Of a stretch of 64,000 nt of DNA, positions 60-61,617 are shown in pieces. Within the stretch, counting starts at the first letter, position 1. Every line of letters begins with the position of its first letter. The notes under the pieces are model-generated. The model saw nothing but the letters and a program-made list of their open reading frames with translations. It was not told the DNA's origin and ran no database searches. Position numbers and translations under genes: made by a program. Origin of the DNA: Phoronis australis (Eukaryota > Animalia > Phoronida); NCBI GenBank assembly GCA_002633005.1, contig NMRA01000299.1:186001-250000 (forward strand), written 5' to 3'.

Positions 60-126
60 CCTTGCATCTTTGATGGCCAATGTGAGAGCAACGTCAGGAA
101 CCTCCTTAATGTTGTCTGACCACCAT
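60..126 (-). CDS. ROCO exon, TIR-like domain (WWSDNIKEVPDVALTLAIKDAR)
   Basis: tttag acceptor, gtatgt donor; its first base completes a Val codon with the previous exon. Confidence 0.8.
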
Positions 127-3100: not shown

Positions 3101-6100
3101 GTTCAGATTGGGCAACTTGACTGGTTTGCACACCACAGATTCTGCCAGTTTAGATCAAAGACACCATGCTGTTGTGGTTAATTAAACTGCTTAAGGCTGC
3201 TAATGTTATACTTCTCTAGATAATGAGATCCACCATAAACATAATGAGACCCACCATAAACATAATGAGACCCACTACAAACATGAAACCCACCACAAAC
3301 ATAATGAGACCCACCACAAACATAATGAGACCCACCATAAACATAATGAGACCCACCATAAACATAATGAGACCCACCATAAACATAATGAGACCCACCA
3401 CAAACATAATGAGACCCACCATAAACATAATGAGACTCACCATAAACATAATGGAGGCAACAACAGTTTTTTTAAATTTTGTTTTGAAAGTTTGTAAATA
3501 GCATAATTTTTTAATAGTTTGTGAAAAGTACATTCAAGTGATTAGGTTTTGAATTTTGACAAGAAATGTGACTTTTACAACCTAAAATGTTAACTTTGTT
3601 TAAAGTTGCAATATCTCCTTGATTAATTGTGCTGGGTTTGCAACATAATTGGGCCAATTACCAAATCACCAGGCAGCAGTTGGATTTTGAGGTGATCCAA
3701 GTGAATGTCATCGGACACTAGACACGATCATACTGAAATGCATCACATATAGCTATGTCTCCAACATCGGCCAACGTCAAAAAATAGCTATGGTTATGGT
3801 ATGGGCAAAAAAGGAGAAAATAACTTAAAGCAAATAACTGAAAAGCCCGAAAACATACAAAGTAAACACCCATCTGTTATCATGATCTTGCCACCTATGT
3901 AACTATCACTGTGTCAAAAAGCAGGACAGTTTGATGCAGTGGCAGGACGAAGGAGGGTCTCACCAAAAGCGAGAGACAGATGGCAACTAATTATGTAATA
4001 ACCCTTAACTAATACACAAAATTGACTGGAAAAGTTACATACCATGAAGCTCAGGTAAGGACAGGGTATGGAAATAGCTGTCGCACTGCAGAAAGGTTGC
4101 CTTCAACTCAGAGGCACGTCGTATCTTACTGGCAGCTATCATGCAGGGCTCCATGTAAGATGACTGTAAACAAGACCACACACAGATAGACTAACTCGAA
4201 CTCACAATGAATGGCAAACAATCTTGAGATTCATTGCCTATAACTGGCACTAACGCTGTGAGTGAATGTGAAATCAACAATTTTCACATCACATTTAAAC
4301 GATTTTAAATATTATAGCTGGAGCTCAAACACCACAATCCTAAGGTACTGGGTAAGGGAATTTCAGAACAAAAATAACTTGTCAGAAATTTTACGTTCTT
4401 GTTTTTAGCATACGACTAAATGGTATAGCTGTCATCAAACATTTATGCCCCTTACGTAACTTACTGTACTTGGGTAGCATGTTTTTGGTTATATGGATAA
4501 TTTGTTTAAGACACAACACTGGTCGTTGTTAAATATCTTTATTCCATTCCATTCGTATCCTCAGAACAATGTTCAAAACTCAACAGAGCATTTGGTATAG
4601 TTGCTGACCAAGAGACACAATTGACTAACACACAATATTTCCAATGTATCAAACTGAAGTGTTTTCCACAATTTCTTGACGGATGGTTTACCTTCATGAC
4701 ATATTGTTGTTAGACAGCACCATTCTGAAGATGCACAGATAACCAATGGGAACGATTGCATACCATTCGACTAACGTAACATTGCTTGACATGTGGACGC
4801 AGACATTCGTTGATAAGGCATACAAACTCATAATCAACGACATACTGGGCAACAGGGTGGACCTTCGCTTTATGTTATTTTTCATAATGAACTTGGGAGG
4901 TCTTCATATTCGGATAATAAATAATGACATCGAGGTAATCATTGGATTTACAAACTTTAACAATATCCCAGATACAAAGAGCACGAAAAGTATTGGAGTC
5001 CCTTCTGATTGCATTCGAAAAATCTATTTTGAATGAGCAGCAAACAGTGTCACGCCGCACGCTACACTTGTTTGAGTGTCTTTCCTGTCATTTTTTTCAG
5101 TATTTCACACTTACCGTGTCCCACTTTGTACGTTTACTAGCTTTTGCTCTGTAGTAGCAGTGCCTCATTTTATTTCCACTTCAGAATGAAACATTTCAAA
5201 GTAGTGTTTTTTAATCATGACTCTCAGTCATTTACATTACCAAAGAATGTCGAACTTTGCTCCAAGGACACAAAAAAAATAGAATAAACATAGTCAACAA
5301 TGGCAAGTGTCATGTCATTACCAAGTTTTGCATAACCTTTTGATATGTAAAATCTCTTCATAAGTGGCTGCGGGGATTTTTGTGCGAGACAACGGCGATT
5401 ACATTGGGGAAACATAAGAATGTTGATAATGATAAGAAGCAGATGACTGAAACACGCAAGTTTAAGACTTGACTCGCGATAGCATCCAGCACAGGTGTAT
5501 GACAACAGGTTGACCGGAAATGAAAAAAATCAAGCAAAGACAGCCTGTGCATTTGACTTGAACTACATAAATTTTAACTTACGGTTTTCAAGCAATCCAG
5601 GCATGGTATTTGGTAGTCATAATGAACACCATGGAATGACTCTTTGACAAGCGTTGCGAATACATCATAAATCAAGTAAAGCATGTTATCTGGATGGGAT
5701 CCTTGAACTTTGACCTCTAATTGATTAGCTGAATCTCTACAACAGGTCAAAGGTCACAATCAAACATCTGGGCCTGATAGCATAAGTTTTATCACAAACC
5801 ATTCTTTCAGCACAACTAGTTTTGCCCACATTTTTCAGGCACAGCTTCTATTTTGAGTGAGATATATGATAATAGAACTATTATACTTCCCAATGCCTAG
5901 GGTTTTGTTAGCAAAATCCCTAATACAATTTTGAAAATTTAAAAACTCACATAGTTACCCTAATTTTTACTCCTCCAGACAGATTTAATGGTTTCCATCG
6001 GTTTTAATGAACAGAAGTTTTAACTCAACATTTTCTACTAAATCCTCATCCAAAATTTAGCATTGATTAGGTAATACATACTTTGTTTGCTTGATAAGAG

Positions 6101-9100
6101 CAATCTGTCCTCCTTTTTTCAAGATGGCTCCAGTTTTCCAGATCAAGGAACTGTTATCAGAGAAATGATACAGACGTACCTGAAAATTGGAATCGGCATT
6201 AAAAGTTACACAGAGTATGTGTAGCACAAAGTTTGAAAATCAAGAGCATTAAACTGACAGGTAAAAAGTCACTGATAAAATAAGAATCAAGGAGTTTATG
6301 ATAATTAAAGGAAAAATTACACTCAAATAGTTCCACTTGCCTCATTTCATGTTCCTTATGCCGTGTTGCAAAATTCAAATCAAAACAACCGAAACTTGCC
6401 ATTGTGTGGAAAATAGTCTCCCAACTTGAAGGTAATGCTTTTATTACCAAAGCGGCACTCAGCAGATCTAGGCTCAAATTTATATGATTTTAACATCAAT
6501 CCAAGACCACAAACTGACATGTCTCAAAACATTGACGTGCCAATGTTAGTGTGACTTCTGGTGGTTTGGAAATAGTACTATGCACATAATAGGTTTGATT
6601 TAATTAAACTGTCACAAAACGACTAATTAATGTATGCATGTTCCCTGTAAATGAATCAAAATCAAAAGTGCATGTTTGCTTGTCTTGCTAGCCAAAAAGC
6701 TCCATACCTGGGCTCTGTTGAACAAACCAGACGGCAGATAGTCAAACAAAAATATCATTTTTGTTTCCCTGATGTTACCAGATAAGTCCTCAATTTCAGG
6801 CCATTGGAACTGCAAATCAAATGCAAAGAGTCTTATCAGTATTAGTACAAACACTAATTATGTTTTACTTACAATGAAAAGTGTCGTGCATTTAACAAAT
6901 TTAACAAATAGATTAAAGCAAACTTTCTTGCCAGGGAGTCTCTACCCACTCGAGAGTAAAATAAAAACGGTGATGCATTTGTAAGGAGCTTCCTTGAAAA
7001 AGTCACGCTGTAGCAGGGTTTTGTTCTTGAAACACAACCTTTTGTAGGAGTTAATTTCGCAAATTAACACAACCCATTCATTCAGTGAAATTCTAGGATA
7101 GCTGACCTTTGACGTATTAAGTCATAATGAGGAAAGGACTTAAAGATAGAGATAAATGTAAAAACTTTAAAAAATTGCCACTAGGAGGCACACCGGTAGT
7201 CGGATCTGCCAGAAAGTTTGCTCAAGCTGTCCCATTCATGAAAGGAACACAATCATGTTCAAAATTTTATGAACATACATCAAAGGGTGTTGGAGATAAA
7301 GCAGCAGACGCCAGACAGACCGGGATTATGCCATAAAACTGTAATAGTTCCAGTTTGAAAAAGACACCCATCATAATTCTAAATGCCACATCCCATATAT
7401 CTCTCAGTCTATAGTATTACTTCTGCACTTTTGAGTGTGTTAAAAAGGCCTGTTGCGCTATGCAGTTAGGACAGTGTACAACATGCGCTTCATCAATCAA
7501 GAGAATTTGAACCCAGTGCAAAAGTCATGCTAAGCTAATGACAACACTAAAAAACACTGGATTAGCACGTGGGAGAGTCATTCTGGTTATGTAAGCAGAA
7601 TGCCATGACTGGCGTGTTATCGTAAACTTTGTGAATTTCTGGACAAAATTGCCAATGGTCTGCCTCTCAGTGGTGTTTGTTTGCACTTCTGGATTTTACA
7701 TCAATTTGCAACCAAGATACAAATTAGAGACTATTACAGTACTGAAAACTTAAATATAAAATTAACAAATACAATAAAAAGGTAATGTTCAAATGGCCAA
7801 CGGTAAACAAACAATTTTTGATTTGAATGCTAAGAAACCCGATACATTGTAATCAAATAGGTGCTGGAATGCTGTGCAGTTACCGACAGATAAAAATACA
7901 AAATAGTAAAACCACTAAAAACTAAAACGATGAGAGTCAGTATTAAACAAGAGCAACGCAGAGCATTGAAATGCGCCCACGAATGCATCGCAAATGGTGT
8001 GCTTTAGGGGTTGCTTATTTGTGTCATAAAAATGAATACTAGATGGCACAAAAACATCCAAAAACGGGAACATGTCATTGCTTCTTTAATAGAAAGCTAG
8101 ACACCAAATTTCATACAAATCCATCACGGAACTTCCGTGAAACAAAGAAAAACAGAATAAAATGAAATTGCCACAAGGGTACACAGTGTTCATTGGGTCC
8201 GCCTGAAAGTCATCATTGTCTGTTGTTAGCTTCATACAAATGCACTTACAAAATTTAAAAAAGATCCTGCTGTGGGTTTAGGCAGGCTTTCAAGCAGTTT
8301 TAGGCCAAAAAGTAGGGAAAAAGTAGGACACATTTTCAAAAAAAATTAGGAAAAAGTAGGAACTGTGGAGTGAAAAGTAGGAAAAAGTAGGAACAAGAGC
8401 AGGCGTTCAGGAATAGTTTTCAACAATATTTACCAAATGAATGACGTTCACCTCATGTCAGAGGCAGTAATCACCATTAGTTGGAGAGCTAGCAAGACTT
8501 TATTCACAATTTTGAGTGTAAAAAGTTTGACTGCGTAATTTTATTGAACATCACGTACCATTGACGGAAAGGAGCATCTCAAGTGGCACAGTCCTTGGGT
8601 TTTAATCCCTGGGGGGTCCAATAGAGGACCCAAATGTCCATTTAATTAAAATTTCGAGTACAACATCCCTTACAAGTGCATTTCATGCAAATTACCACTC
8701 AAATAAAAATCATACAACTTAAAACGTGAAAATGCTTGGGGTGATTAAGACACTTACTAATTAACAACCAATTAATGATATATTTAAACTTTTAAGTGCA
8801 ACGAAAAATTCTTTTACCAAAAAACAGCAATTTTATTACTACTATGCGTAAATCATATTATTTCAAATGCACAAAAATACATTTGAAGATATGAACAATT
8901 TACTATCAAATACAACAAAAATGAAACAAAAACATATTAAGTTGGGATACATCTGAAACTAAATATTACATGTAGCTAGCTTCAAATTAGAGCTAAACTG
9001 CTTGAAGCATAATTTTATCTCGTGGCAACAAGTGAAAGTACATGGGATTGTGATGCATGGCACAGTCTATAAAACCGGAATCCAAAAGGTAATAATTATT

Positions 9101-40252: not shown

Positions 40253-40295
<43 letters not shown>

Positions 40296-42757
40296 TAGAC
40301 AGACAGACAGAGAGATACAGTGAGAGAGAGAGAGAGAGANGGGGGAGAAGGGGAGGGAGATGGAGAGAGAGAGTAGACCTCAAAAACAGAGACAATGAGA
40401 ACACAAGAAGCACAAGATGACTTCATGACTTTCACTAAGAAACTGTCACTTACTAAGAGAACTGCAGCAGACTGGTAGGCGCCATTTTGCCAAATGAAGC
40501 TCCGATAGGGAAATGCATGCTAAAGTCTCCCTGGTGAACTTAGCACAGGGCAGTATGAGAAACGATGCACTCTGGGAAATTTTCGCATATATGCCGGTGG
40601 TCAGGGTAGGATCATCAAACCCCAGGCGAGATTCTTCAAACAATTTTGTCATGACTGAAAAGAATTAATTTAAAGAATATCAAACAGGAGCAATGCAAAC
40701 CACTGAAATGTGCCACAAATGGTGAACTTTCTGAAAATGGGATACACTACCAAACATGTTTCAATTACACAGTTTCTATTGCAAGTCACTTACCTTCAAT
40801 CTGGTTTCTGTTTCGCTTGCAGACATTTTGAGTGCTACGTCCACTACCGTAAGTGAAGCTAGTCAACAGAGGGTGCACTGGACAGTCCAAGTGTTGAGAC
40901 TATAATTAAAAGGATGCAAAGGAATTTGTTAACTGCAGACATGGAAATCTCAGGGCAAGACGGTTGCAAATATTCCACCATTTGGAGCAAAAGTCAAACA
41001 GACAGTAATTAAATACCTTCATAAACATCGTCAAAATAGTGGACTTGCAGCACTAAATTACAACGCCAGTAAAGTAATACTGTGCTACCTGCAGTTAAAT
41101 ATTACATCAAAACTGAAAATAGAATAAGTGACTTATTCTAGAGCACGGCCAACAATGGCATGATTTCTCTTTCCAATTTGATTAAACTAAAGTTTCAGAA
41201 GCGGAAAACATTGCTTTCCTTTCAAATTTACAGATCTGTGCCAAATTTTATCAAACACAATCAAACAGCTTGGCAGAGTTTGTCAGCAAATGTTCGACAG
41301 AGTTTGAAAAATGTACACTGGTTGTCCAAACTCACCAAAACATGAGATTCTGAAAATTCAGCATTTGGTCGTGTTTGCAAACAGAAATAAGCAGAGTTTC
41401 CCTGATTGTAGACCATACTTAGTACCGTAGTAAAGAGACAGTCTTGACGCAGGAACATACCTCCTTGAAGAAACTGTATGGTATTGGCTCAGCATTTACT
41501 TCCTTCAAGTATGACTCCCACGTAAAAGGCTTTTTATCTATAAATTCATTCTTGAAGAATTAATCTATTGAAAGTTGACATAACAGCCCAAATCATTCTA
41601 TGCACCAAGTGCTACATGGCTGGCTAAATAGGCTGGACTCGAGATCAAACGCTAGACGGAGTTCTTGTTGGTACATTGGCCATGATGCTGTTGGCACACA
41701 AAATGACTGAGTGAGTTATGCTAATCCTCTACCTATTTTGAACAAAACATAATAGCTAAAACAATCATTTTGATACTTTTCAAATATCAACTACACATGC
41801 CATTATTCAAGATAGAACAGTTTTACCAGTTCTAAAGACATACCAGTTGACTTGTCTAGTAAAACTTTGAATTAAAATGAAACACTTTTAATACTTATGA
41901 AATTAATAATTTCATCAAAAGAGTTTACAAACAACAAGTACATTTATTAGGAGGTTGCAGCTCTTTGGTGAGTCTCTTTTGTTTCTTGTATTCTATGGTC
42001 ATAGAATCTATCCAACCAATAGGGTGAAGGTCGACATCGTCGAACGTGGTCCAGTAAGTGTAGGTGTCTGTCCATCCATCAAAATATATCTGGATCTTCT
42101 CTTCCTCATGATTGATGTCCTCTGAAATTCAGACATTACAAACATGAACTTTAATTTGTAATTGTTTTTTACAAAAAATGTAATTAATAAAAGTATAGCC
42201 CAACAAGCACCAAGAAGCTAGAATTATACCTGGGTGCAAAAAATATTACAAGGATAAGAATTTGATAGATTGAAAGATTGCAATTTCAGAAATATGAATG
42301 CACATTTTTTAATGTTCATTACGAAATAGTCAATACAATTACAGACCCAGAAAGCGCCAAGAGGCATTGTATCCGGGCTAAACAGTACAATACAAAGAAA
42401 TCTATATACAATAAAACACACATATATAAATTAACAAACTAGAATGTATTAAATATAAAATATGATTATGAATATAAATAAATTATTGTCATACACAATA
42501 AGTGACTTTACAGTCAAGCTGATGATTCGAAAATAATCAAGTGTAAATTACGATGATATCAACTCACCCAAAGAGATTTAATATTAAAAAGAAAATTTGA
42601 AACTATTTTGAATAAAACCTTATTTTCATTTAAGACAAGTTCTTTAAAACCATTTTGTAAAAAATTGAATATTCATTCAAATACTAATGTGTGATACAAG
42701 TGCACAAAGCCTTGGTGAAGTGACAGAGACAAAGAATTATCATATGTTACACACTGA

Positions 42758-42812
<55 letters not shown>

Positions 42813-45800: not shown

Positions 45801-48800
45801 TAATTCTTAGCCATGTTTTCTCAAATCTCTCATTTTCCCTGGCAAAAGAACTTTCAATAACTTATAAATGAAAGCCTTTAGTTACTGTCAATGTCCAGCA
45901 AAATTTCCAAGTGACAAATGAAAGACATGTGACGTAATTTCTTCATCTATAATTATCAACTCTTCATTGTTTAGCAAGAAATGTTTTTTATAAATGCATC
46001 AAAGGAATGCAAATTGACATTTCGTCTATCTTGTCTATATAATAATTTTGTACCTATCCAATAGATTTAAATTTACAACCTTGAAAAATGTATTAAACAA
46101 AACATTTGTTTACTAACCCTTCCATGGGTGTGCTTCCAAAAGAGTGCACTCTTGTCTTCCAGAGTTGAGAAGACTTTGACTTCGAATGTGACGGAACTTC
46201 CCTCGCAGTTGTCTGTGGCAACCACAGAGCCATTTCTGAACAATATAATGTTGGCCTGAGAAGAGAAAAAATATAATGATTTAAAATTAGTAATAAAAGG
46301 GGGCATAAAAAAAAGGAAAGAGAAGTTTTAAGGTCACATAAATTGTAAATGCGCCCACAAATGCATCACAAATGGTGTGCTTTTAGAGTTATTTTTATGA
46401 TAAAAATAGCCACTAGATGGCACAAAAAACATACAATCCATTCAAAAACGGGAACATGCCATATTTCATAAAAATCTGTCAAGGAACTTCAGAGAAACAA
46501 AGGAAAACAGAATAAAATGAAATTGCCACTTAATTGTGGGCACAGCGTCCATTCCATCTGCCTGAAAGTCGTCGTCTGTTACCTTCATATGAAATCATTT
46601 ACTAAATTTAATAAAGATCCTGTAGTGGGTTTTGAAGATACAGCTATGGGCGCAAAACAAATCAAAACTACCTCTAGGAGGCGCCACAGTAGTCAGTCAC
46701 CATCATCAAACGTCCTCTTCACACTGAAAACATGTACGCCAATTTTCAAAACCATCCCTACATGATTTTGTTAATCAAGGGGTGGACGTCAAAAACAAGA
46801 TTTGAAAACAGCAAAAATGGCCACCAGGTGGCGCAATATACCTCGATTCCATCCAAAAACAGGATGATAGTGTCATGTCACCAATAGATGCCTATAATCA
46901 AAATTTTATGAAAATCTATTGAGGACCTTTGAAGATACAGACTGGTAAACATAAAAAACTAAAATTGCCACTAGGGGGCACATCAAAAGCCAGATCCGTC
47001 CGAAAGTCGTCGTCGTCCATTGTCAACATCATATAAATACACTGGCTAAATTAAGTAAAGATCCTGCAAACGGTTTAATAGATACAGCCATGAGCGCAAA
47101 AACAACAAAACTGCCACTAGGAGGTGCCACAGTAGTTGAACTCGTCGGAAAATCGTCGTCAGCCATCCACTTCATAGTAAAAACATACCTTCAATTTTCC
47201 ACAATTACCCTTAAAGACGTTTGGTTGATAGATGAGTGGACGCCAAAAAAACAGACTCCAAATCAGTAAAAATGGCCACTAGGTGGCGCAAACTAGGTCG
47301 AATCCATCTGAAAACGAAGAGGTGGCATCACCTCATTAACAGATGCCTGTATGCCAAATTTTATGAAAATAGGTTGAAGACCTTGGAACATCAGAGGTAA
47401 ACGAAAAAAAAAATAAATTGCCACTAAGTGGCACACCAGTAGTCAGATCCGTCTGAAAGTCGGCGTCCTCCGTTGTTAACATCATATCAATACACTAACT
47501 AAATTTAGTAAAGATCGTACGAATGGTTTAGGGGATACAACCATAGGTGCAAAAAAAACAAAACTGCTACTAGGAGGCGCCACAGTAGTCGAAGTCATCA
47601 GAAAATCATCGTCAGCCGTCTTCCTTATAGTAAGAATACATGCCAATTTTCACAATCGTCCTTTGAGCGGTTTGGTTGGTAGCGGGGTGGACGCAAAAAA
47701 ACAGAATCAAAAACAGTAAAAATGACCACTAGGTGACGCAAGCTACGTCAAATCCATCCGAAAACGGGAGGAAAGCGTCATCTCCCTAATAGGTGCCTAT
47801 ATACCAAATTTTATGAAAATCCGTTTAGAACTTTTGTAGATGGTAAAGGTAAAAAACTAAAATTGCCACTAGGGGGCACACCGGTAGTCGGATCCGTCTG
47901 AAAGTTCGCTCATGCCGTCCCATCTACAGAAGGAACACATGTGAAATATTTTATGAACATACGTTAAGGCGTTTTGGAGATAGAGCAGTGGACGCCGGAC
48001 GGACGGACGGAAATGACGGCATAATAATAATTATCTTTTTGCTGAACAACTTAACGTGACTGTCTAAATCTTTCAACCACATGAGGCAACTTCTGAAAAA
48101 TCAGTTACTTTTTATTAATAGCTTTATTTTAAACTTTACAATTATTCAGCTTTCGTAACAAATGTTCAAGCTAGAATTTAATTAATAGTCATTGAAGTTG
48201 TAAATGTTTATAAATAGCAAAGTCAGCAGGGTTTTCTCATGCATGAGCACTGAATTGACCTTGAGACAGCACAAATAGACAGCCTCACAGTGCTTCTTGA
48301 GTTGAGATTCGTCTCCATTTGAATGAACGTAGATATGGAATTTGCCACTGTAGACCGGTCTGTTTAAGAAGTTGTTTGCAGCTCCTTCCAACTGGGAGTA
48401 AGTACAGTTGCGACACTTGATTGGTCAATCACAGCCTTGTCAACTTCATGGAATTTAGGTATTGTTTGGTTGGCGTGCGTTTGGTTGTAGGTATTGGTGA
48501 TTTGCAGACAATGCAATGTAAGGTGTATGGATTTCTATTCTACTTTGCACTACTTTGTGATTCGCCCGTGTAATATCAAAAAATTATGTATTTGGTGTCA
48601 TTAACCAGTCGTGTCATAACACATTCTAGGTCATGTGAGAAATAGCACTAAGTTACGCCATGTTAAGGGGTTTGCAGAGCACTAGAGTTCAGTGGATTGT
48701 TTCTCACAAACCTGCTCTACTCCTTGGGTATGCACTACTTCAAAATGGCCCTGACCATCCATGATTTCACACATTTTATCTTTTTCCCCGCTCCTGTAAA

Positions 48801-51800
48801 AAAAGGAACAACACATTATGCTAGGCAGCTGATCCCAGCCATCGTGACGATGTGCCAATCGATATTTCATCAGCGAAACCCGACCAACTCCACCACAACT
48901 CAGCTTACATATGCCACTGACTGGCAACATCGGAATTGCCCTTAGTTCTCTGGATTAAACACCAAATGGCGTATGGATTTGAGATTAATAAAAATCTACC
49001 GCCATTACAATGAGTACCATACTCGTCTGGGTTACCGCCATGCTCGGCTTACTGCCCACCCCTGAAATTTTCCATTTTTCATTTTAAGCGCCCATGCTTG
49101 GCTTACTGCCCACCCCCCATTTTTTACGATCGAGACCTCCTTAAAAGGGTGTGTGCTTTTGTGAACGTTCGTCTTGCAAAACTAAGATTCTAAAACGTGC
49201 GTAACTCGCTTACCTTTCACGACAATCAATCAGTTTTAGCAGAACCGGGAACTTGCCTTACTACAGCGGTAAAATACCCATATTCTCACGCTAGATTAAG
49301 CACAGAACTTCGTGTCAGCATGTACTGATTACTGAGACAGCACTTGTCGAATGTATTTCATTGCCGTGGAAGAACCAACAAAGCGGTACCGTATGTCTTT
49401 ATGAGCAAGAACAGTGTTAACAGCCTGAGAAGGTTTAAGAGTGTAAACGTCACACTTGTTACCTTAATGTCGTAGACACAGTAATGTCCACTTTGTTATC
49501 CAGATAGAACTCCAGAGATTGGAATTGCCTGTGTGTTAGCAGCATTTTTGTGCTGACGGCCATTTCCACAGATGACTTAATCTCCAAGATGTTACCACGT
49601 AGATCTTTTTGACGTGGCATCACATTGTACACAACATCAACAAAAGGCGCGGGATGCAACTCTCTCCACATATTCTGAAAAAGACATTCTTTTTTATAAA
49701 TCTAAAAGCAAGACCAACAAACCTGGACAACAGGTTACAAGGAGGTTTTACAAACAGTTATTTCAATCTCATTGCCATCTTACAATGACTTGTCCTATGA
49801 ACAGCAAGATCAACAGCCACACAAAGCACCACAACCCTACCCTGATTCAATAGTATTTACCTACAATGCTAAATCTCCATCAAAAACAAAATCTTACTAC
49901 TGCTATGCGATGATCCCCAAGACACATCAAAACTTGCTAAGCTCAACATTCAACATTCTGATGCCAGTCAAAGGAACACAATTGGTTTTAAATTAAGGAC
50001 TGCAAACAGTATTGTTCGGATAGTTGTTGTTTTGTAAGATAGAATTTTTAAAGTCATTAGCTTTAACCAGAGTCATGAAACAGAAAAATTTATTGTATTT
50101 TTGTAATTCCGGTTTTGGGTTAACAACTCTTAATATTAAGTCAACTTGAAATTGAATCTATGGGGTGCTATGCCACTCATTTGGTAAATGAAATTCTGGT
50201 GGATATTGAGACTGTTCAACAGAGATTGTGGCACTCACAGTGAGGCCACTATGTAATGTTTTACATACATTGCAGGCCATTGTTGGCACTGCTTCTAAAA
50301 AACACTACAACAATTAACAAAAGCTGTACAGCAAACCCTTTTCAAACAGAAACATGTCCCTGAAGGTTCTAATGAAATGCCAACGGGTTCATTTCTTTCT
50401 GTTATTTGGTTCTAAGACCTAAACAAGACAGTGTGTTTGCATGAATTCACTTCAAAATGACAATGTTCTGAAAGCAAGACATTCAATGAAATAGTTTTGG
50501 CCAGGAGCCGTTATCGTCACAACAAGCCTAAATGCTGTTTGTACTTTTATTCTCTGTTATGTCAGCTGTTTCTATTGACTTGTTTTTGTCAAAGACGATA
50601 ATTCCCCACCACCAAATGGAATTTTGAAACTGGAACCCTAACAATGTATTTCTGGATTCTCTGTTAAAGAAGTTGTAGCTGGAATCTGAAGGCAAGTTTG
50701 TGATTTAAAGTTCCACGTTCTGGTTTATGAAACCAATGAGACTCAATCTCTTACAAGACGATTTCAGCACAAAAAGTTGCTACAATCATCTGGGGGCACA
50801 TTTTGGAATTTCGGGCCATGAATTTTGTCCGCAATGGTCACAATTGAGTCACTGAGCAGGCAAACATTAGTATTACTAAGCTATGCAGTGAATAGAGTAC
50901 ACTCTCCTGATGATGTGTCATCAAATCTGTATTAGCTACAACAGCAAAACTTCATGTTCACGCAAACAATGGAAGACATTGCAGGCAGGATATTTTTGGC
51001 ATCAAGAAAAAAAATTAGTGTAGACCAATAATTGAGGAACTAGTCACAAATTTTATATTTCCAACTTCACTACAATTTGGCTATCTTTCTCTGAGCTTAA
51101 AAATCAACTAAAATGATCTTAAATGTGTTACTCAACACCATTTTTGAGTATAAAATGAGACTTGGGATCAACATTTTAAACCATACTGAAATTCTGGAAG
51201 GTGCTGCTGCCATAATCTAATTAGCCACTGGCTTTTTATTGGATATCCCACGTGACACAGCAGAGGGAACAATGAAAAGCGCATGCTTTGTTTTTCCATC
51301 GTGTGAACATTATTCTGTTGTCTGTGCTCCACAACTTTACATTATACTATGGTGAGGCATGGTGTTTGCGATGGGGAGGCATGGTGTTTGCGATGGTGAG
51401 GCATTGTGTTTGCAAGGTGAGGCATGGTGTTTGTGATGGTGAGGCATGGTGTTTGCGATGGTGAGTCATGGTGTTTGTGATGGTGAGGCATGGTGTTTGT
51501 GATGGTGAGATATGGTGTTTGTGGTGCATCCAACAACACTGCTGTCAATAATGCTGTGGTACAAAGAAATGGCACAAATTTGTGAATGAGACCAGAGTAT
51601 GAGACAAGTCAAAGGCTTAATTGCCAGGCTTGTGAATCCCTTGACATGTTACAATCACTTTGTCAAGTGTTGCTTTGATGAGAGAATTGTAGTAATTACT
51701 GAGATCACTGAATTCGGGAATCAAACCACAGGCTCCTGATAAAACCGGCAAATGTCCTAACCATATAACTGTTTAGCGCAATAGGCCCATCCATGAGGCC

Positions 51801-54800
51801 TGCGCACGTCTGATGCATCGCAAACGACACCAGACCACCTACACTCTTTTTTTTAACCATATAGCTAATAAGCAAATGCCCATTAGTAGGTGGCAAACAG
51901 AGGATCATTCTACAATTCACCCAAAAAAGTAGTTCACAATTTTGAGCATGCTGCTGCACCACTAGCAGGTTCAATTATTATTTTAATCAAAAAGTACAAA
52001 TATCATTATTTTTTAGTTATGGTCTATTTTATTCAACATTGGGAACTGTAAACGGACATCAAGCAAAACAGTATACAGGGGTCTTATCACTACTCTAACA
52101 TTTTGAAAGTATGAAAATGGTGTTATTAAACATCTTATACCTACCTTAAACAGAGAGTTCTCCAAGGAATTTTGGCCACAGTGAATACAAGCTGGGTTGT
52201 CTTCATGGTCATAATCATGTTCTTCGACAAATTTGATGATTGGATCTGAAATTTTGTCCATTATTTATAGCATGTATCATATTACACATATATGCAATGT
52301 GTACCTTTCACAAAAACATGAAATTTTTCTGTATGCCTAATTCATGTGGTTACTTTGTGCCTAAAGGCAATATATTTCCACAAAATAAAAGAACACACAA
52401 ATGACATGGTGTTATGTTCCTCTACTGGCATCAAATTACAAGGTATGCAAATTGGCAGAATTTTGCAAATCATGGGGCATGCAAGTGAACTTGAAGAAAA
52501 CCAAGGTGATCGTTTTCAGAAATAGCAGTCCCCCTAGACAAAATTATATGAGAAATAGTTCTACAATGGAACTATGCATACGTCGATGTGGTGTCTCATT
52601 ACAAACACCTTGTGCTGTTTATGACCCCAAGAGTTTCGTGGACCAAAGCCATTAAAGCGTTATCTAGTTACAAGAAAAATAAAGCTGCCTCAGCAATTTT
52701 TAAATTAAAGTGAAGATGTCATGATCTACCTCCATTGATAGCCTTTCACCTGTTCCATAAAATAGTTTACCACTCCTTGTGTTATGGCACTGAGATATGG
52801 GGCTTAAAGGAGTATGAACAATTGGTAAATGTATATATTTTTCATTTATCAAGTTCAATTTGTAAACACATGTTGGAAGTATGGAGTTGTTCTAACTTAG
52901 CAGTTAGGGGAGAATGCGATCGATTCTGACTGTTTCCTAAATATTTTGTATCATGTACAAAATATTGGTTCAAAATACTGGGGATGCCTAACAATAGCTG
53001 CATATGATATGCTTTTTCGGTCAGACCTGATTGGAAGATCTTCTTATAATTGGGCAAGTTATTAAGTACACTTCCGTCTGTATATGGTTTTTCAGATGTA
53101 TGGATTAATCAATCACATTTTAACAGTTTTTTCCCAGCATGTCAGTGACTGTTATTTGCAAGGCTGGGAATCTGATATGGAATGTAATGCAAAACTGTCT
53201 TGCTATGTGGGGTTTAAAACAACGTATTGTCTAGAGAATTATTTAAAAATAATTAGCGAGATCCCACATGTTTTTATCCAGTCTCTGATTCAATTGCGAT
53301 GCTCAAATCATTCATAACTTGTGGAAAGAGATCGCCACACAAATATTCCCTGTGAAAATAGGTTGTGTTAGTTATGTAATTCGGGATTTGTAAAGGATAA
53401 ATATCGTCTGGTGTTAGTTTGCAGTGCGTACCAAGGCCTTCAGGGATTAAGTACTTCAGCGGTCATTTTTGTCATTCTTCCACAACATCTAAATTTGAAT
53501 CTCTCATGAGAACTCCGCATGCCCTACTTCTACCCTACATCCACCATGCTCTCAAGCGTCACAATTTATGATCCAGTTTGTAACGCACCTGACAATGTAC
53601 TGTCCTGCACATGTTATATTTTGGGCCTATGGCCATATGTCAACATTTCAATAAGATCTTAAAACATGGTAAGAACTGGTTGTACCATTTAATTAGGCCA
53701 AACCTCCCAGGATTGAATAGACTTGCATGCGATTGGATGAATTAAAGTGCACTTAGAAAATAGACCAATCATTACAGGACTACTGTCATGACATAGCTTG
53801 TGAGTTAACTGTTCCAATATGGCTGAGTGCCTATTAGATAGTAAATAGCCGGCACCATAATCATGATGCTTTAATCAGCTGTGTGAATTTATGTATTATT
53901 CACTTTACAAGCTATAAGGACACACTCAGATGAAATGAATGAATTCAATGTGAATATGTCCCTATAGGTTGTAAACTTAAATTACTACGACCTATCAGGC
54001 CACACCCACAGCACAAGTGATGATGTGATTGGCGCTACATTCTGTAGACAAAAGACGCGCGTAAAAAACTTACAGAACAGAACAGAAACAATGAGTTCTA
54101 TCCCAAAATTCAACATTCCAAGGTGGCCCACCAATCACTTCAAATGTGCGGTCACCATTTCATTGGGGTATGGACACCAAACATACTCCCGAAAACACTT
54201 AAAATATTCTACATGTTCTTGCATCATCTTGCTTTTACAAGTTAGCCTAGTTCCTCGTTTCTACAGAATGCAGTCCTAAAGTTATCAGTGAGCTGCATTT
54301 CTGTAATCGACCGGTGGTCCCAATAGCCCACTTGGACTAAAGCAACTGCATGGTTAGCAGAAAGTTCCAGGTACGATCCCCACTTAGGACAGAGATCTTT
54401 CAGACTACTGTAACAGTGACTTGACCAACATAGTTACATTTATTAATGCCTGCACATCAACAACATCTTTAACTTTTAAGTTAGTGTTTAAGAAATATAC
54501 CTCCTCCATTATGGGTTTGATTGAAGTACACTCCTTCTTTGTACAGCACAAACTCCACAACAGTGTTAACACGTGTCATGAAAAGCCAATAGGACTCCTT
54601 TAGGTCATTCCTCTTGTCTTCCGCACCAGGTGGCAGCACAAAACGGTATGTGACATGAAGTGTGCTGTCAGTGCCTGAAATGTCCAAACATGTGTACCAC
54701 GTAACATGATTGTATATTGAACTTAATTTAATTATAAATAATTGATAGTCTCTACTTTTATATTTTTACAATGTAGATAGATAAAAAAACCTATCAGTAT

Positions 54801-57152
54801 CTGCATCTAAATTTGAAGCACGTTCCAATACCTGAAGCAATTTAGTAAAACTATTTTACTCATTACCAATACCTGCATCCCAATGTATTCTAAAAGCACA
54901 GAAACTTTTACAAGAACTGAATCTTTTTGCACTTATTGATTATGTCTCCCAGTGATTAAGAATTCCAATCAAATAGATGTTGGAATGCCGTGCAGTTACC
55001 GACGAATAAAAATATAAAATAGTAAAACTAGTAAAACTAAAACGACGAGCATCGGTACTAAAATATATTAAAATATCCCCACGTTTCGAGCGATGCGCTT
55101 TTTGTCAAGGGCGTGCTAGACTGCTGAGTACATGAAAATAGATCTAAAATAAAATGGCACAGGAGATGCGAATTTCTGTAGAGAAATTAGACTGTTGTCC
55201 ACTAGGTTCCCTGATAGGGGTTATGAACCACGCTTGGTATCTGACACTCTATCCAAGGTACAATCTATTTCTAGGGAGGAACTCCTGGTCCCTAAGGACC
55301 AGATGAATAAGCAAGATAAGAACATGTTCATTCCATTTGTCACTACCTTTCTTCCCAGTGTGAATAGAACTCTGAATAGGATTTTTGATGAACTCAGTCC
55401 GCTGTAAGACAATGAGTACTTAACTAGGGTTTTCCCCTTGAGGCCCCGTCTGGTCTATAGACATCCTCGCAATCTTAGGAATATGCTAGTTAAAGCAGGT
55501 TTACTAAGTTAAACATAGATCACCAAGAGGCTGGCTCTGTGAGATGTGACAAACCCAGGTGCCTGACCTGCACTCACATATCAGGGGAGTCAGTTGTAAG
55601 TCGCCATGGTGTCTCATATGAGATCAGAGACAAATTCTCATGCTCGAGTGCGGGCATTGTTTATCTTATTAGATGTGGTAAATGTCCCCACGCGTGGTAT
55701 TTTGGGGAGACAGGTAACTCGTCACGCACGAGAATGAACGGCCACGGGCAGACGATCCTTCACAATAATAGGGCAGTCCCCGTTGGGGAACATTTCAACC
55801 TCCCAGGCCATACTACCAGAGACGCCGACGTACTGCTAGTCAAAGGTCGGCTGTCTGACATTTACGCACGTAGAAAATGCGAGGCCGAATTCATCGCAAA
55901 ATTTAACAATCATACCAGAGGCCTAAACAGAGACATAGGGGTTCTGTCTCACTACAAATCTGTAGTGATAGACTCCAGTAGCTACATATGTCTCTGTTTG
56001 GGTCTCTCTCTCATCATACGTAGGCCTACCCCACTGGTAGTTGCTATGTCCTGTAGTGTTCATATTATGTGATCTCCTGTGCCTTTTTATTTTAGATCCA
56101 TCTAAATGTACTCAACAGTCTGTAGCACACCCTTGACAAAGAGCGCATTGCTCAAAACGTGGGGATATTTTAATACATTTTAGTACCGACGCTCGTCGTT
56201 TTAGTTTTACTAGACAAAAGTTTTACTATTTTATACTTTAAGAATTCCTGCAAGTTCTGTAGCCCATATTAGCCGGCCTTGAAGATGCCCTTGTCAGACA
56301 TCTGCGAGACTGCTACGGTAACATCTGTTAGTTGAATTTATAACCATCAGAGCATGTGTTGCAATATTGCCATTGACCAAGAGCAGTGCGACTTAGAATT
56401 TTAATTCATTAAACAAATCGGTAACTCTTGAATAAGTTTCCCCAAAATTGATCCCACGAAATTTGATTGAACTCGGAATCCTGGAAAAATTTGTGTCCAA
56501 TGCAAAAAAAAAATATTAGTAAAAAATAGTCTCAATAAATACTGCAATAATTTCAGGCAATTTTTACTTGGAAATGGCACTTTTGTGTAGAACAGAATAG
56601 AATAGAATGTGCTTCATTCCAGACTTACATTTGTCCGTAATAGCTATACAGTAATGAACTATCCTAACAGCTAAGAGAATTAAACTCTAGAAACCAAATG
56701 AGAAAAAATAAGCTTAAGATAGCATGAATAAAATGAATAAAATATAAAATGATTGAAATCAATACAAATGAATGCAGGATTCTAAACAAATATCGGAGAC
56801 AGTGTACTCATCTCTCATGTGACAATGAATATCAATCAAGAGAGAATAAAACAAACATTAGATGCTTTCAACTTTCTATGGACACCAAGAATGTGTTTGC
56901 AAACTATATGAATTTATTAAAACAGTTCATATTTGTCCACATATAATTACCAAAATCGCCTGTGTCCAGCTGCAGAAGTGCAGTTATGGCTCCATATTCC
57001 AAAATGGCAACTTTGTCATAGGTCATCAACACAATGGAGCGGAGATACGTGCTAACTCGAGACAAAATGGTTGTGGGTACACTGTGAGCTAACTTGTATG
57101 TAAACTTCACCTCTGTTTCATTCAAAGCAGGATTTGCTGGCCAAAATTTTGT
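60..57152 (-). CDS. Multi-exon ROCO protein (MBT-LRR-Roc-COR-TIR, with an N-terminal COR-B-like/UPA-like region); partial at both ends
   Basis: 33 exons with canonical GT-AG boundaries and compatible phases give 4806 nt without a stop. Roc motifs: GLGGAGKTS, WDFAGQ, GTHAD. Also COR, LRR, MBT and TIR-like motifs. Exons upstream of the MBT are less certain. Confidence 0.9.
652..890. repeat. Fold-back inverted repeat (arms of about 112 bp) with a hammerhead-like motif in each arm
   Basis: 652-763 is the reverse complement of 779-890 with few mismatches; 15 bp spacer. Confidence 0.92.
829..875 (+). ncRNA. Minimal type I hammerhead-ribozyme-like motif (variant core)
   Basis: GGC-CTGATGA-A-GTCC..GGAC-GTAC-CGTA-GCC. 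Stems I and II are present but GAAA is altered; the mirror copy reads GTAA. Confidence 0.45.
1934..2132 (-). CDS. ROCO exon, start of TIR-like domain (DFFMLYCGED...IDPRRLKTDLEELGHKV)
   Basis: Lies within ORF 1930..2154; cag acceptor, gtaagt donor; phases match. Confidence 0.85.
3220..3453. repeat. 21-bp minisatellite (ATAATGAGACCCACCAYAAAC), about 11 copies
   Basis: Direct tandem repeat visible in the sequence. Confidence 0.95.
4043..4163 (-). CDS. ROCO exon, post-COR (SSYMEPCMIAASKIRRASELKATFLQCDSYFHTLSLPELH)
   Basis: cag acceptor, gtatgt donor; phase 0 to 1. Confidence 0.85.
5583..5736 (-). CDS. ROCO exon, COR-B (LEVKVQGSHPDNMLYLIYDVFATLVKESFHGVHYDYQIPCLDC)
   Basis: tag acceptor, gtaagt donor; COR C-terminal CxxC motif. 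Confidence 0.9.
6082..6179 (-). CDS. ROCO exon, COR-B (VRLYHFSDNSSLIWKTGAILKKGGQIALIKQT)
   Basis: cag acceptor, gtatgt donor; WxxG COR motif. Confidence 0.9.
6708..6809 (-). CDS. ROCO exon, COR (FQWPEIEDLSGNIRETKMIFLFDYLPSGLFNRAQ)
   Basis: cag acceptor, gtatgg donor; LPxGLFxR motif. Confidence 0.9.
7145..7335 (+). mobile_element. 3' fragment of the pearl/Helentron-like repeat
   Basis: Similar to 17200-17410 and 11480-11680. Confidence 0.7.
8283..10973. mobile_element. Non-autonomous TIR DNA transposon (P-element-like), 7-bp TSD
   Basis: TIR CAGGCTTTCAAGC/GCTTGAAAGCCTG; TSD GTTTAGG at 8276-8282 and 10974-10980; subterminal AAAAGTAGG repeats. Confidence 0.85.
8487..10807 (-). mobile_element. 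Degenerate Academ-like DNA transposon (XPG/FEN1-like nuclease remnant)
   Basis: Imperfect TIRs of about 250-290 bp (AGCAAGACTTTATTCAC...). Minus-strand remnants EADIRVILH...SDTDIL, GLHTFIGCDY and IPPCEVELALHMDRS..W...GW. Confidence 0.72.
11931..12095 (-). CDS. ROCO exon, COR-A (DGRFFHADIGAVW...LVPCLLSDSEPE)
   Basis: Lies within ORF 11877..12113; cag acceptor, gtttgt donor. Confidence 0.9.
12635..12781 (-). CDS. ROCO exon, COR-A (AVTFLNDLGTI...VVVNPQWIVDVM)
   Basis: Typical COR FLxDLG and PQW motifs; cag acceptor, gtaaac donor. Confidence 0.92.
12898..13440. mobile_element. pogo/Tigger-like MITE
   Basis: Imperfect TIR CCGTATTCGCC(C)TAA / TTAGGGCGAATATGG followed by TA; subterminal TAAGCGCCC repeats. 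Confidence 0.7.
14038..14125 (-). CDS. ROCO exon, COR-A (EREQKKLNLIDITDMKNLASEVGIIDETE)
   Basis: cag acceptor, gtaagt donor; phase 2 to 0. Confidence 0.88.
16077..17440 (+). mobile_element. Pearl/HINE (Helentron-like) element spanning the assembly gap
   Basis: Subterminal inverted repeat ATGCGCCCACA/TGTGGGCGCAT, (GGAC)n, 3' hairpin GCGTCCACATATAAATATGTGGGCGC. Confidence 0.85.
16279..17149. other. Assembly gap (871 N)
   Basis: Run of N. Confidence 1.
18204..18310 (-). CDS. ROCO exon, Roc-COR junction (NIDELQEHVIQTALQQPYMGEQIPAVW)
   Basis: MGEQIPxxW linker motif; cag acceptor, gtaagt donor. Confidence 0.92.
19213..19302 (-). CDS. ROCO exon, Roc G5 region (KRFPQIAGFHYVSCFTGL)
   Basis: cag acceptor, gtaagt donor; VSCxTG motif. 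Confidence 0.92.
21345..21491 (-). CDS. ROCO exon, Roc (FFLSDRAVYLLVWN...APILVVGTHADQ)
   Basis: G4 GTHAD motif; tag acceptor, gtgagt donor. Confidence 0.95.
22380..22551 (-). CDS. ROCO exon, Roc switch I/II (VTDGIDI...WDFAGQTVYYNTHQ)
   Basis: G2 and G3 motifs; tag acceptor, gtattt donor. Confidence 0.95.
22577..23595. repeat. 509-bp direct duplication joined by a single N at 23086
   Basis: 22577-23085 versus 23087-23595, few substitutions. Confidence 0.95.
23947..24112 (-). CDS. ROCO exon, LRR cap and Roc P-loop (LKTPPREIV...KLMMVGLGGAGKTS)
   Basis: PPxEI motif and Walker A; tag acceptor, gtatga donor. Confidence 0.95.
27084..30196. mobile_element. Non-autonomous hAT-like DNA transposon, 8-bp TSD
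   Basis: Termini CATAGAC...GTCTATG; subterminal inverted CCATATTGGAGAGTGTTAC; TSD GATGAAAC at 27076-27083 and 30197-30204. Confidence 0.85.
28846..29221. mobile_element. GC-rich MITE(s) nested in the hAT-like element
   Basis: Outer CAATGGCGGATTTAG / CTGGATCCGCCCCTG; inner CATGAGCGCACCCAG / CTGGGTGCGCGCATG (about 28952-29172). Confidence 0.65.
31519..31725 (-). CDS. ROCO exon, LRRs (LKNLATLFLSYHAIAEIP...LAELYLRHNPLLVTIP)
   Basis: LxxLxLxxN repeats; tag acceptor, gtgaat donor. Confidence 0.92.
32472..32595 (-). CDS. ROCO exon, EF-hand-like insert (FITEIFQQCDVNHKQILSTDEIHLLN)
   Basis: cag acceptor, gtagag donor; supplies the phase 0 to 1 bridge needed between the flanking LRR exons. Confidence 0.82.
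34142..34308 (-). CDS. ROCO exon, LRR and helical insert (ITKLTNLEMLGVSG...)
   Basis: cag acceptor, gtaaga donor; phase 1 to 0. Confidence 0.88.
35058..35574 (-). CDS. ROCO exon, LRR array
   Basis: Lies within ORF 35032..35619; several LxxLxLxxNxLxxLP repeats; cag acceptor, gtgagt donor. Confidence 0.95.
36446..36508 (-). CDS. ROCO exon (DMCKLLKRQMFIMHVYELAGQ)
   Basis: cag acceptor, gtaatt donor; symmetric phase 0; no motif support. Confidence 0.6.
38318..38389 (-). CDS. ROCO exon (QFLPTLWKPAMEREADYSLEQLHE)
   Basis: tag acceptor, gtgaga donor; symmetric phase 0. Confidence 0.65.
38980..39119 (-). CDS. ROCO exon (VSQYHTVHASRDVL...YLFKSSKT)
   Basis: cag acceptor, gtaagt donor; phase 1 to 0. 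Confidence 0.75.
39630..40190 (+). repeat. Dispersed repeat, uninterrupted copy
   Basis: Matches 15905-16076 plus 17441-17810. Confidence 0.75.
40250..40372. repeat. (GACA)n/(GA)n microsatellite
   Basis: Visible directly. Confidence 0.95.
40454..40654 (-). CDS. ROCO exon (MTKLFEESRLGF...SELHLAKWRLPVCCSSL)
   Basis: ORF 40446..40652; cag acceptor, gtaagt donor; phase 1 to 1. Confidence 0.8.
40794..40899 (-). CDS. ROCO exon (SQHLDCPVHPLLTSFTYG...NQIE)
   Basis: tag acceptor, gtaagt donor; phase 0 to 1. Confidence 0.72.
41461..41537 (-). CDS. ROCO exon, MBT arm (KKPFTWESYLKEVNAEPIPYSFFKE)
   Basis: FxWxxYL...A..P..F MBT motif; tag acceptor, gtatgt donor. Confidence 0.9.
41942..42121 (-). CDS. 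ROCO exon, MBT core (IQIYFDGWTDTYTYW...DLHPIGW...LQPP)
   Basis: FDGW, HPIGW and LQPP MBT motifs. Confidence 0.92.
42761..42814. repeat. (CA)n microsatellite
   Basis: Visible directly. Confidence 0.97.
44717..44964. mobile_element. MITE with CATGCRCGCACCCAG TIRs
   Basis: TIR CATGCACGCACCCAG / CTGGGTGTGCGCATG; internal sequence shared with 28952-29172. Confidence 0.8.
45325..45412 (-). CDS. ROCO exon, MBT start (GMRLEARDKKTPSLICVATV)
   Basis: Matches the GMKLEAxD..P..ICVATV MBT consensus; cag acceptor, gtatgt donor. Confidence 0.92.
46118..46255 (-). CDS. ROCO exon (ANIILFRNGSVVATDNCEGSSVTFEVKVF...)
   Basis: cag acceptor, gttagt donor; phase 0; a second frame is also open. Confidence 0.7.
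46347..48026 (+). mobile_element. Pearl/HINE-like element with an expanded internal repeat array
   Basis: ~150 bp subunits in a ~450 bp higher-order period (46961, 47415, 47860); GGAC repeats; 3' hairpin missing. Confidence 0.82.
48260..48391 (-). CDS. ROCO exon (LEGAANNFLNRPVYSGKFHIYV...YLCCLK)
   Basis: cag acceptor, weak gtcaat donor; ORF 48182..48391. Confidence 0.68.
48712..48793 (-). CDS. ROCO exon (SGEKDKMCEIMDGQGHFEVVHTQGVEQ)
   Basis: ttttacag acceptor, gtttgt donor; phase 2 to 0. Confidence 0.75.
49463..49674 (-). CDS. ROCO exon (NMWRELHPAPFVDVVYNV...VDITVSTTLR)
   Basis: ORF 49459..49671; cag acceptor, gtaaca donor. Confidence 0.78.
51349..51523. repeat. 22-bp minisatellite (GATGGTGAGGCATGGTGTTTGY), about 8 copies
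   Basis: Direct tandem repeat. Confidence 0.93.
52145..52245 (-). CDS. ROCO exon (PIIKFVEEHDYDHEDNPACIHCGQNSLENSLFK)
   Basis: cag acceptor, gtaggt donor; phase 1 to 0; CxxC. Confidence 0.72.
52440..53650 (+). mobile_element. Degenerate 5'-truncated LINE (RT C-terminal part and Cys/His knuckle)
   Basis: LAEFCKSWGMQVNLKKTKVIVF, LCYGTEIWG and LRCSNH...ENRLC remnants with stops; partially duplicated at 59868-60590. Confidence 0.8.
54501..54674 (-). CDS. ROCO exon, COR-B-like (TDSTLHVTYRFVLPPG...GVYFNQTHNGG)
   Basis: cag acceptor, gtatat donor; phase 1 to 1. Confidence 0.78.
54967..56237 (+). mobile_element. 5'-truncated Penelope-like retroelement (GIY-YIG endonuclease) with inverted terminal repeats
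   Basis: CDKPRCLTC...IVYLIRCGKC...YFGET...RMNGH...VGEHFN. 54967-55166 is inverted relative to 56072-56237. TSD TTAAGAATTCC at 54956-54966 and 56238-56248. In-frame stops present. Confidence 0.92.
56951..57152 (-). CDS. ROCO exon, COR-B-like (TKFWPANPALNETEVKFTYKLAHSVPTTILSRV...ALLQLD)
   Basis: cag acceptor, gtaatt donor; resembles the W...Y.F..LP.G.F.R COR pattern. Confidence 0.75.
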
Positions 57153-61443: not shown

Positions 61444-61617
61444 CTCCTCCATTATGGGTTTGATTGAAGTACACTCCTTCTTCGTACAGCACAAACTCCA
61501 CAACAGTGTTAACACGTGTCATGAAAAGCCAATAGGACTCCTTTAGGTCATTCCTCTTGTCTTCCGCACCAGGTGGCAACACAAAACGGTATGTGACATG
61601 AAGTGTGCTGTCAGTGC
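61444..61617 (-). CDS. Duplicate or allelic copy of exon 54501..54674
   Basis: Near-identical sequence and splice sites; one K/E difference. Confidence 0.7.

Follow-up and report, generated by a model that had tools for sequence, protein, structure and literature searches.

The minus strand of the window, a 64,000-nt stretch of AT-rich eukaryotic DNA with repeats, carries the middle part of a real ROCO gene that runs from 57152 to 60 and is open at both ends. It belongs, as an orthologue, to an invertebrate ROCO-TIR family that is still uncharacterised and has full-length members of 2700-3300 aa. The full anatomy of this family (double Roc-COR, double TIR, swappable domain slot and CaaX tail) was not found described, while its domain list is already in print. 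The sequence-only reading of the window had named MBT, LRR, Roc, COR and TIR domains, and it missed the second Roc-COR, a SPRY-like domain, an EF-hand-like insert, the second TIR and the CaaX tail. By analogy with characterised TIR enzymes, the full protein may be a TIR enzyme anchored to the membrane and gated by GTP, which on triggering would cleave NAD+ to messengers of the cADPR type; we put this reading slightly short of an even chance. The features of the locus, in the direction of the gene, were as follows.

59868..64000, minus strand: duplicate segment, 96% identical to 52925-57051 by self-BLAST.
54501..57152, minus strand: predicted COR-B of an N-terminal degenerate (pseudo) Roc-COR; exons 57152-56951, 54674-54501; aa 1-125; the gene extends upstream of the window.
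46118..52245, minus strand: CxxC (CIHCG) and SPRY-like domain; exons 52245-52145, 49674-49463, 48793-48712, 46255-46118; aa 126-303.
41461..45412, minus strand: single MBT module (core and following arm); exons 45412-45325, 42121-41942, 41537-41461; aa 304-418.
36446..40899, minus strand: conserved alpha/beta linker domain; exons 40899-40794, 40654-40454, 39119-38980, 38389-38318, 36508-36446; aa 419-612.
23947..35574, minus strand: LRR array with EF-hand-like insert; exons 35574-35058, 34308-34142, 32595-32472, 31758-31519 and the 5' part of 24112-23947; aa 613-~995.
Exon 32595-32472, minus strand: EF-hand-like insert in the LRR array, DVNHKQILSTDE.
18204..24112, minus strand: canonical Roc GTPase; exons 24112-23947, 22551-22380, 21491-21345, 19302-19213, 18310-18204.
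4043..14125, minus strand: COR-A, COR-B and a Cys/His motif (CLDC ... CDSYFH); exons 14125-14038, 12781-12635, 12095-11931, 6809-6708, 6179-6082, 5736-5583, 4163-4043.
60..2132, minus strand: first half of TIR1; exons 2132-1934, 126-60, with a phase-0 GT donor at the end.

Using homologues as guides, we assembled a 30-exon model with AG/GT at all junctions and no stop codons, encoding 1524 aa. The addition of two phase-0 linker exons (38389-38318 and 36508-36446), which are less certain than the other linker exons, lifted the score of the linker profile from 12.1 bits to 20.5; two further linker candidates, 36271 and 36123, lowered the score and were dropped. The final model of 32 stop-free GT-AG exons encodes 1569 aa (1581 aa if an alternative acceptor is used), which comes near the continuous phase-compatible chain of about 1602 aa with open ends that had been claimed. 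An 871-base run of Ns (16279-17149) lies within a COR-A intron; the COR profile was unbroken across it, and no exon appears to have been lost there.

A Pfam scan of 23 exon-bearing frames returned two matches each to MBT, LRR, Roc and COR-A and one to COR-B, with single-exon E-values of 5e-6 and 1e-7 for MBT, 5e-7 and 6e-5 for Roc, 1e-7 and 5e-9 for COR-A, and 2e-8 for COR-B. The other domains were scored with family profiles built from a 62-protein alignment (39 proteins for the C-terminal profile). The Roc-COR profile ran over positions 2-487 of 488 on the window chain with 751 bits, Roc and COR followed one another on successive exons, and the Roc exons were also joined by collinear tblastn matches from homologues. 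The Roc motifs cited earlier as intact were all recovered (G1 GLGGAGKTS, G3 WDFAGQ and G4 VGTHAD), together with G2 TDGID and a G5-like VSCFTG, so that G1-G4 are complete. On the minus strand GLGGAGKT was located at 23972, WDFAG at 22421 and THAD at 21359, with the full G1 straddling the splice 23947/22551. Among the domains for which profile matches had been sought as a check, MBT, LRR, Roc and COR were thus found in Pfam, and TIR was found only through the family profile: the exons at the end of the window scored 48 bits (best of 200 shuffles, 1.3) over positions 2-76 of 162, with no Pfam TIR match on the window exons scanned. The "TIR-like" call therefore stands for the 76 of 162 positions that the window covers. 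With the TIR1-start exon as query, HMMER returned 65 matches, mostly short unnamed fragments, and these were uninformative.

To place the gene, we collected homologues. A search with the Roc exon returned 63 proteins from 64 candidates, and one with the abalone Roc-COR-TIR region found 152 proteins, of which 120 were listed. The listed proteins span molluscs, annelids, a brachiopod, nemerteans, rotifers, a flatworm, the nematode Plectus, Trichoplax, hemichordates and amphioxus; names from vertebrates or arthropods and kinase Pfam families were both absent from these 120. In the databases many homologues are called serine/threonine kinase, LRRK1, MFHAS1, pats1 or L(3)MBT-like, and we rejected names of this sort because no kinase domain was listed for these proteins. 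MBT was present in 34 of the 120 listed homologues, and MBT, LRR, Roc, COR and TIR_2 occurred together in 30 of the 120 listed (152 found), from molluscs, an annelid, rotifers, a nematode, a placozoan, a hemichordate and amphioxus. The architecture that the sequence-only reading had suggested looking for in other proteomes therefore exists, and its guess that similar automated predictions might be found elsewhere was right, as the MBT-LRR-Roc-COR-TIR list is printed for Aplysia LOC101848126 and for Trichoplax.

In a FastTree tree of 59 chosen Roc-COR sequences, that of the window grouped with Aplysia LOC101848126 in a spiralian clade of 18 members (support 0.987; best identity 62%), in which its nearest neighbours were poorly resolved (0.675). 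The window gene shares both the Roc-COR grouping and the domain order of the LOC101848126 orthologue group. Canonical G1 was kept in 124 of 126 relatives and G3 in 125 of 126. Across phyla Roc-COR identity is approximately 57-62%, and the MBT-bearing clade roughly tracks host taxonomy, as is seen in conserved genes, and known ROCOs work in trafficking and chemotaxis according to the available text of PMC6337361 and PMC4104024. These points would suit a protein of the same anatomy, and probably the same enzyme output, that served as a housekeeping regulator of membrane or stress processes (trafficking, cytoskeleton or SARM1-like self-destruction of cells or axons) and not as an immune receptor. 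We consider this alternative unlikely, if a serious one: each species has several paralogues with exchanged slot domains, and this, the exon duplication and the divergent transcripts described below fit a fast-changing, immune-type family. We infer an immune role for the gene.

The N-terminal region of the relatives is predicted, from profile comparison and structural modelling, to be a second Roc-COR that has lost its P-loop. When the N-terminal ~500 aa of the long members were compared with the canonical Roc-COR, hhalign gave a probability of 98.6 (E 6.7e-16, 408 columns), while six unrelated control pairs gave 0.1-2.0. An AF2 model of the Ptychodera unit, built from 29 sequences, reached a pLDDT of 79 and a pTM of 0.79, and Foldseek with this unit retrieved LRRK1 (E 3e-17, TM 0.62), LRRK2 and the Chlorobium RocCOR (E 5e-15). 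A canonical Roc-COR HMM at E<1e-3 detected the unit in 0 of 62 proteins. It was found with the family profile in 71 of 74 relatives with at least 1300 aa before Roc, a count that is partly circular because the profile was built from 58 family members. The relatives also have an N-terminal LRR, which would be expected in the window gene as well. By the same family profile the first two exons in the window probably encode the COR-B of this pseudo-Roc-COR, scoring 33 bits where the best of 200 shuffles reached 5.2. The N-terminal P-loop was kept in 1 of 58 units, that of Trichoplax 57945 (P0138), which is also the only member with a Glu in TIR1; P0138 possibly stands near an ancestral state in which both pairs were active.

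The region that follows, with its CxxC motif, matched the family profile with 21 bits, compared with 3.0 for shuffles. Its SPRY-like character comes from relatives: Pfam SPRY matched the region in P0133 and P0146, and the Trichoplax stretch matched Atlas SPRY clusters at 0.95; Pfam gave no direct match on the two window exons tried. The linker domain scored 15.6 bits against 7.8 for shuffles and was well modelled in a relative. It had no Atlas match, and in structural searches filled by MBT matches its only listed match was a weak Bcl-2-like one (Z 3.7). The LRR array was matched by Pfam LRR, and the family LRR profile ordered all five of its exons correctly. At the site of the EF-hand-like insert, relatives gave weak Pfam EF-hand matches.

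Between the SPRY-like domain and the linker lies the MBT module. An initial protein search with the MBT exon gave no match. The first MBT exon was best matched by repeat 2 of L3MBTL3 and L3MBTL1, and database entries for D355 mutants scored 30.6 and 29.2 bits compared with 32.9, which fits an Asp at that position. The EARD and FDGWTDTY of the window align with EAVD and FDNWDESY of L3MBTL3, and its pocket residues are Asp, Phe, Trp and Tyr. Both pocket motifs were kept in 38 of 45 family MBT matches, most of the misses being partial alignments. The abalone module was modelled as one core-plus-arm unit with pLDDT >90 over most of its length, and superposed on L3MBTL1 with Z 15.3 and rmsd 1.6 over 102 residues. 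As described in the accessible part of PMC3229088, the MBT pocket consists of Tyr, Phe and Trp plus D355, is nearly blind to sequence and also binds non-histone targets. Since the pocket residues are kept, a methyl-ammonium or methyl-lysine input is plausible.

The earlier MBT call thus holds for the fold, which Pfam matched, and the window has one module, not the tandem of two to four repeats reported for human MBT proteins in the same partial source (PMC3229088). Amphioxus relatives have two MBT modules, separated from one another. Occupancy of the slot varied. Among 86 relatives with a scorable linker, MBT was strong in 35, weak in 1 and absent from 50; in paralogues the slot holds PLAT (abalone) or C2 (oyster) or is empty, and in Trichoplax 57945 it holds SH3/Tudor-like domains. 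C2 and PLAT are lipid-binding folds. From these comparisons the MBT appears to be an exchangeable module and not the defining input of the family. Its fold and its L3MBTL1/3-like pocket residues would also be expected of a nuclear chromatin reader that bound methylated histones and coupled them to the GTPase and TIR parts. We regard this as very improbable, given the single repeat in place of two to four, the filling of the slot by C2 or PLAT in paralogues, and the presence of a CaaX motif in 27 of 38 MBT-bearing relatives. In the reading we prefer, the MBT would be a swappable input that likely binds mono- or dimethyl-ammonium on a cytosolic or membrane target, and not chromatin.

The window ends before alphaC of TIR1, and the rest of the protein is predicted from its relatives. 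These have two homologous TIRs (hhalign probability 99.8). In the column that we take to be catalytic, picked by an SxxCxxEF pattern, TIR2 carries Glu in 113 of 117 relatives and TIR1 in 1 of 118. The TIR that the sequence-only reading saw as the output is therefore a real TIR, but in 117 of 118 relatives this TIR has no catalytic Glu. Cys was found at position -4 in 93 of 126 relatives of at least 1000 aa, and in 91 of the 101 with a complete-looking end, compared with 2.2% Cys overall; such CaaX ends are typically SKACSVM-like and preceded by basic residues. The CaaX and TIR counts are not independent, because the sequences are related, and the CaaX motif still spans phyla. Beyond the window, the gene itself would be expected to encode a Glu-bearing TIR2, a C-terminal domain and a CaaX end.

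We considered whether the C-terminal domain was a third COR and rejected this (hhalign probability 0.1-0.2). The domain, which follows TIR2, matched the end of a 945-aa LRR-Roc-COR protein that has no TIR (E 3e-13; P0064, P0062), and the TIR pair may therefore be an insertion that separated COR from an older ROCO C-terminal domain.

Animal TIRs with the catalytic Glu make cADPR, according to the available part of 10.64898/2026.04.20.719644. A figure legend in that part, for active TIRs, includes LRR, Roc and COR among its domain abbreviations, and a member of the family may already have been assayed there. The protein could instead be a non-enzymatic TIR adaptor or an intracellular TLR-like receptor, signalling through TIR-TIR contacts to MyD88/NF-kB. 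In the available text of PMC9334734 the Aplysia orthologue is grouped with putative TLRs and a GTPase TLR cascade is suggested, and the TIR1, Glu-less in 117 of 118 relatives, could serve as an adaptor surface. We find this distinctly unlikely. An adaptor would not need a Glu, and that of TIR2 was kept in 113 of 117 relatives from placozoans to amphioxus; the legend in PMC9334734 has the two Aplysia ROCO TIRs falling outside their orthogroups.

A TIR output switched by the GTPase is common to our reading and the sequence-only one. If the protein is the gated TIR enzyme that we favour, prenylation at the CaaX would keep it on the membrane. According to the accessible text of PMC6337361, ROCOs alternate between monomeric and dimeric states with GTP, and their activation takes place at membranes. 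At rest the pseudo-Roc-COR would likely pair with the active Roc-COR within one chain, replacing the usual ROCO dimer; this intramolecular pairing is the least supported step of the mechanism. The Glu-less TIR1 would space or cap TIR2 at rest. A ligand at the SPRY/MBT/LRR end, together with the GTP cycle, would bring about release, clustering of TIR2 and the start of NAD+ cleavage, and Ca2+ may feed back via the EF-hand-like insert. The family would then likely be one of prenylated, GTP-gated TIR NADases/cADPR synthases, possibly restrained by their own pseudo-modules.

That the MBT and LRR-Roc parts belong to one gene rests on phase compatibility and on homologues, and by homology the answer is yes: single proteins of abalone, Ptychodera, Owenia and amphioxus match the MBT, LRR, Roc, COR and TIR1 exons of the window in order, and the earlier domain calls and one-gene claim hold on that ground. 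We also mapped RNA from three stranded raw runs (X1-X3) carrying the same species label, using approximately 18-19% of each and, in the first mapping, one contig set. The mapping left out the 5' exons and everything below 23850, and depth was low. Coverage of the MBT exon bins came almost wholly from first mates on the plus strand, which in most stranded libraries indicates minus-strand RNA, and the MBT exons are transcribed and spliced. The joint from 41461 to 40899, which carries the frame on into the linker, was supported by 6+7 reads; of nine joints listed in 34000-41700 it was the sole gene joint and the sole one with at least 3 reads. Among the joints listed, no RNA bridge from MBT to LRR was seen in 34000-41700 at this low depth; the list from the first mapping was eight joints short of complete. 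The LRR exon was covered mainly by X2 (depth 6.1 in one bin, where X1 and X3 were 0).

The reads were not uniform around the third MBT exon. Within 41400-41567 there were alternative acceptors, intron run-on and many substitutions: an acceptor at 41463 (1+5+1 reads) led to a stop directly after the MBT core, 17 X2 reads continued into the intron below 41461 (41400-41447), and 10-11 reads per run (X1, X2) entered upstream of the 41537 acceptor with several differences, about half of them with a 1-base insertion. Reads also had a 6-base insertion at 40832, in the exon after the third MBT exon. The reads as a whole differed from the window by several percent with small insertions and likely derive from divergent alleles or copies, and short MBT-terminal transcript forms likely exist.

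It is conceivable, then, that in P. australis the MBT exons and the LRR-Roc-COR-TIR exons mostly end up in different transcripts, or that the locus is one of several recent duplicates and is in decay. RNA depth was greater over the MBT region than over most downstream exon bins and no read bridged MBT and LRR; the stop-containing acceptor, the intron run-on, the read divergence and two duplicated upstream exons point the same way. We judge this quite improbable, as all 32 exons are open, ordered and phase-compatible, the best-supported joint in 34000-41700 (13 reads) leads in frame into the linker, and the relatives are annotated as single proteins; the roughly 18-19% of each run sampled and the low depth weaken the weight of a missing bridge. 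The RNA check that had been proposed thus gave spliced MBT exons and an in-frame joint into the linker, along with MBT-terminal reads and no MBT-LRR bridge, and the reads neither established nor excluded separate-gene transcripts for the MBT and LRR-Roc exons. We retain the one-gene reading.

The duplicated upstream exons lie in the 4.1-kb duplicate, which holds second open copies of the pseudo-COR-B exons (64000-63900, clipped by the window end, and 61617-61444) and is either a recent tandem duplication or an uncollapsed haplotype. Two smaller repeats were found in introns. One is a head-to-tail 509-base duplication inside Roc (22577-23085 and 23087-23595, 97% identical), and the other a 21-base tandem repeat of 11.3 copies at 3220-3453, before the TIR1 exon. 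Broken frames at 55153-56069 and 62106-62929 on the plus strand, within the duplicated segment, resemble what are presumably Penelope-like GIY-YIG elements, and frames at 59500-59817 (plus), 25100-26960 (minus) and 9100-10250 (minus) resemble what we take to be decayed LINE and DNA-transposon remnants. Pfam gave no match on the Penelope-like or the LINE/DNA-transposon-like frames.

Taken further, the family could be an ancient one, spread from placozoans to amphioxus, in which a prenylated chain with a built-in pseudo-dimer (a dead and a live Roc-COR) gates a pair of pseudo- and catalytic TIRs behind a swappable sensor slot (MBT, C2, PLAT or Tudor). As a whole we hold this wider proposal to be possible but doubtful. 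If true, invertebrates would have a conserved class of intracellular TIR-enzyme receptor, a counterpart, driven by GTP, of the plant TIR-NLRs that carry integrated domains. The member in the window would then read methyl-lysine on a cytosolic or microbial target and answer with cADPR. For LRRK2 there is still debate over the way in which the GTP cycle of Roc-COR controls an output domain, and a natural asymmetric Roc-COR chain with its own anchor and an NAD+/cADPR readout would make that type of question directly testable.

Several members or possible relatives of the family have been reported before. Aplysia californica LOC101848126 (P0070) and its spiralian orthologues have MBT, LRR, Roc, COR and TIR in the same order as the window gene. 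In the available text of PMC9334734, LOC101848126 appears with ROC, COR and Mbt among putative TLRs, as a domain list that mentions neither a pseudo-Roc-COR, a difference between TIR1 and TIR2, a CaaX nor a function. The window gene adds one more orthologue to that printed list, and its value lies in the family anatomy. The Trichoplax proteins TRIADDRAFT_57945 and 58269 (available parts of PMC4104024 and PMC5094078) belong to the same family. MBT, SH3 and TIR are listed for Trichoplax ROCOs in PMC4104024, where a Ras-like domain N-terminal of ROC was noted in 57945 and two GTPase modules were proposed; in our analysis that domain corresponds to a whole Roc-COR fold present across the family, with a P-loop only in 57945. 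Sea-anemone NG1 has LRR, Roc/Miro, COR and TIR_2, with variants carrying C2 in oyster and MBT in Trichoplax; unlike the window gene, NG1 itself has no MBT reported in the accessible text of PMC5094078. Our literature search, in which subscription journals were thinly covered, found within the available texts no tandem pseudo-Roc-COR, TIR1/TIR2 split or CaaX for this family and, when directed at Roco with CaaX or prenylation, no prenylated ROCO; the available part of PMC11378527 held nothing on the ROCO-TIR family.

Among better-known proteins, LRRK1, LRRK2 and the Chlorobium tepidum Roco share the LRR-Roc-COR core and were the best structural matches to the pseudo unit. They have one Roc-COR per chain and form intermolecular dimers, and the LRRKs carry a kinase in place of the TIRs; in the window COR is followed directly by TIR1 and not by an LRRK-type kinase. 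MFHAS1-type proteins consist of LRR-Roc-COR only, to which the window chain adds MBT, a SPRY-like domain, the predicted pseudo-COR-B and TIR1. L3MBTL1 and L3MBTL3 share with the window MBT the fold and the pocket Asp, Phe, Trp and Tyr of their repeat 2, but have two to four repeats in a chromatin repressor, whereas the window has a single core-plus-arm module in a GTPase protein. Toll-like receptors have an extracellular LRR, one TM helix and then TIR, compared with LRR, Roc-COR and TIR in the window gene. SARM1 and other catalytic TIR proteins have a Glu-bearing TIR downstream of regulatory domains, as do the relatives of the window gene. SARM1 is gated by its ARM and SAM domains, whereas the gate in the present family would be formed by Roc-COR and a Glu-less TIR.
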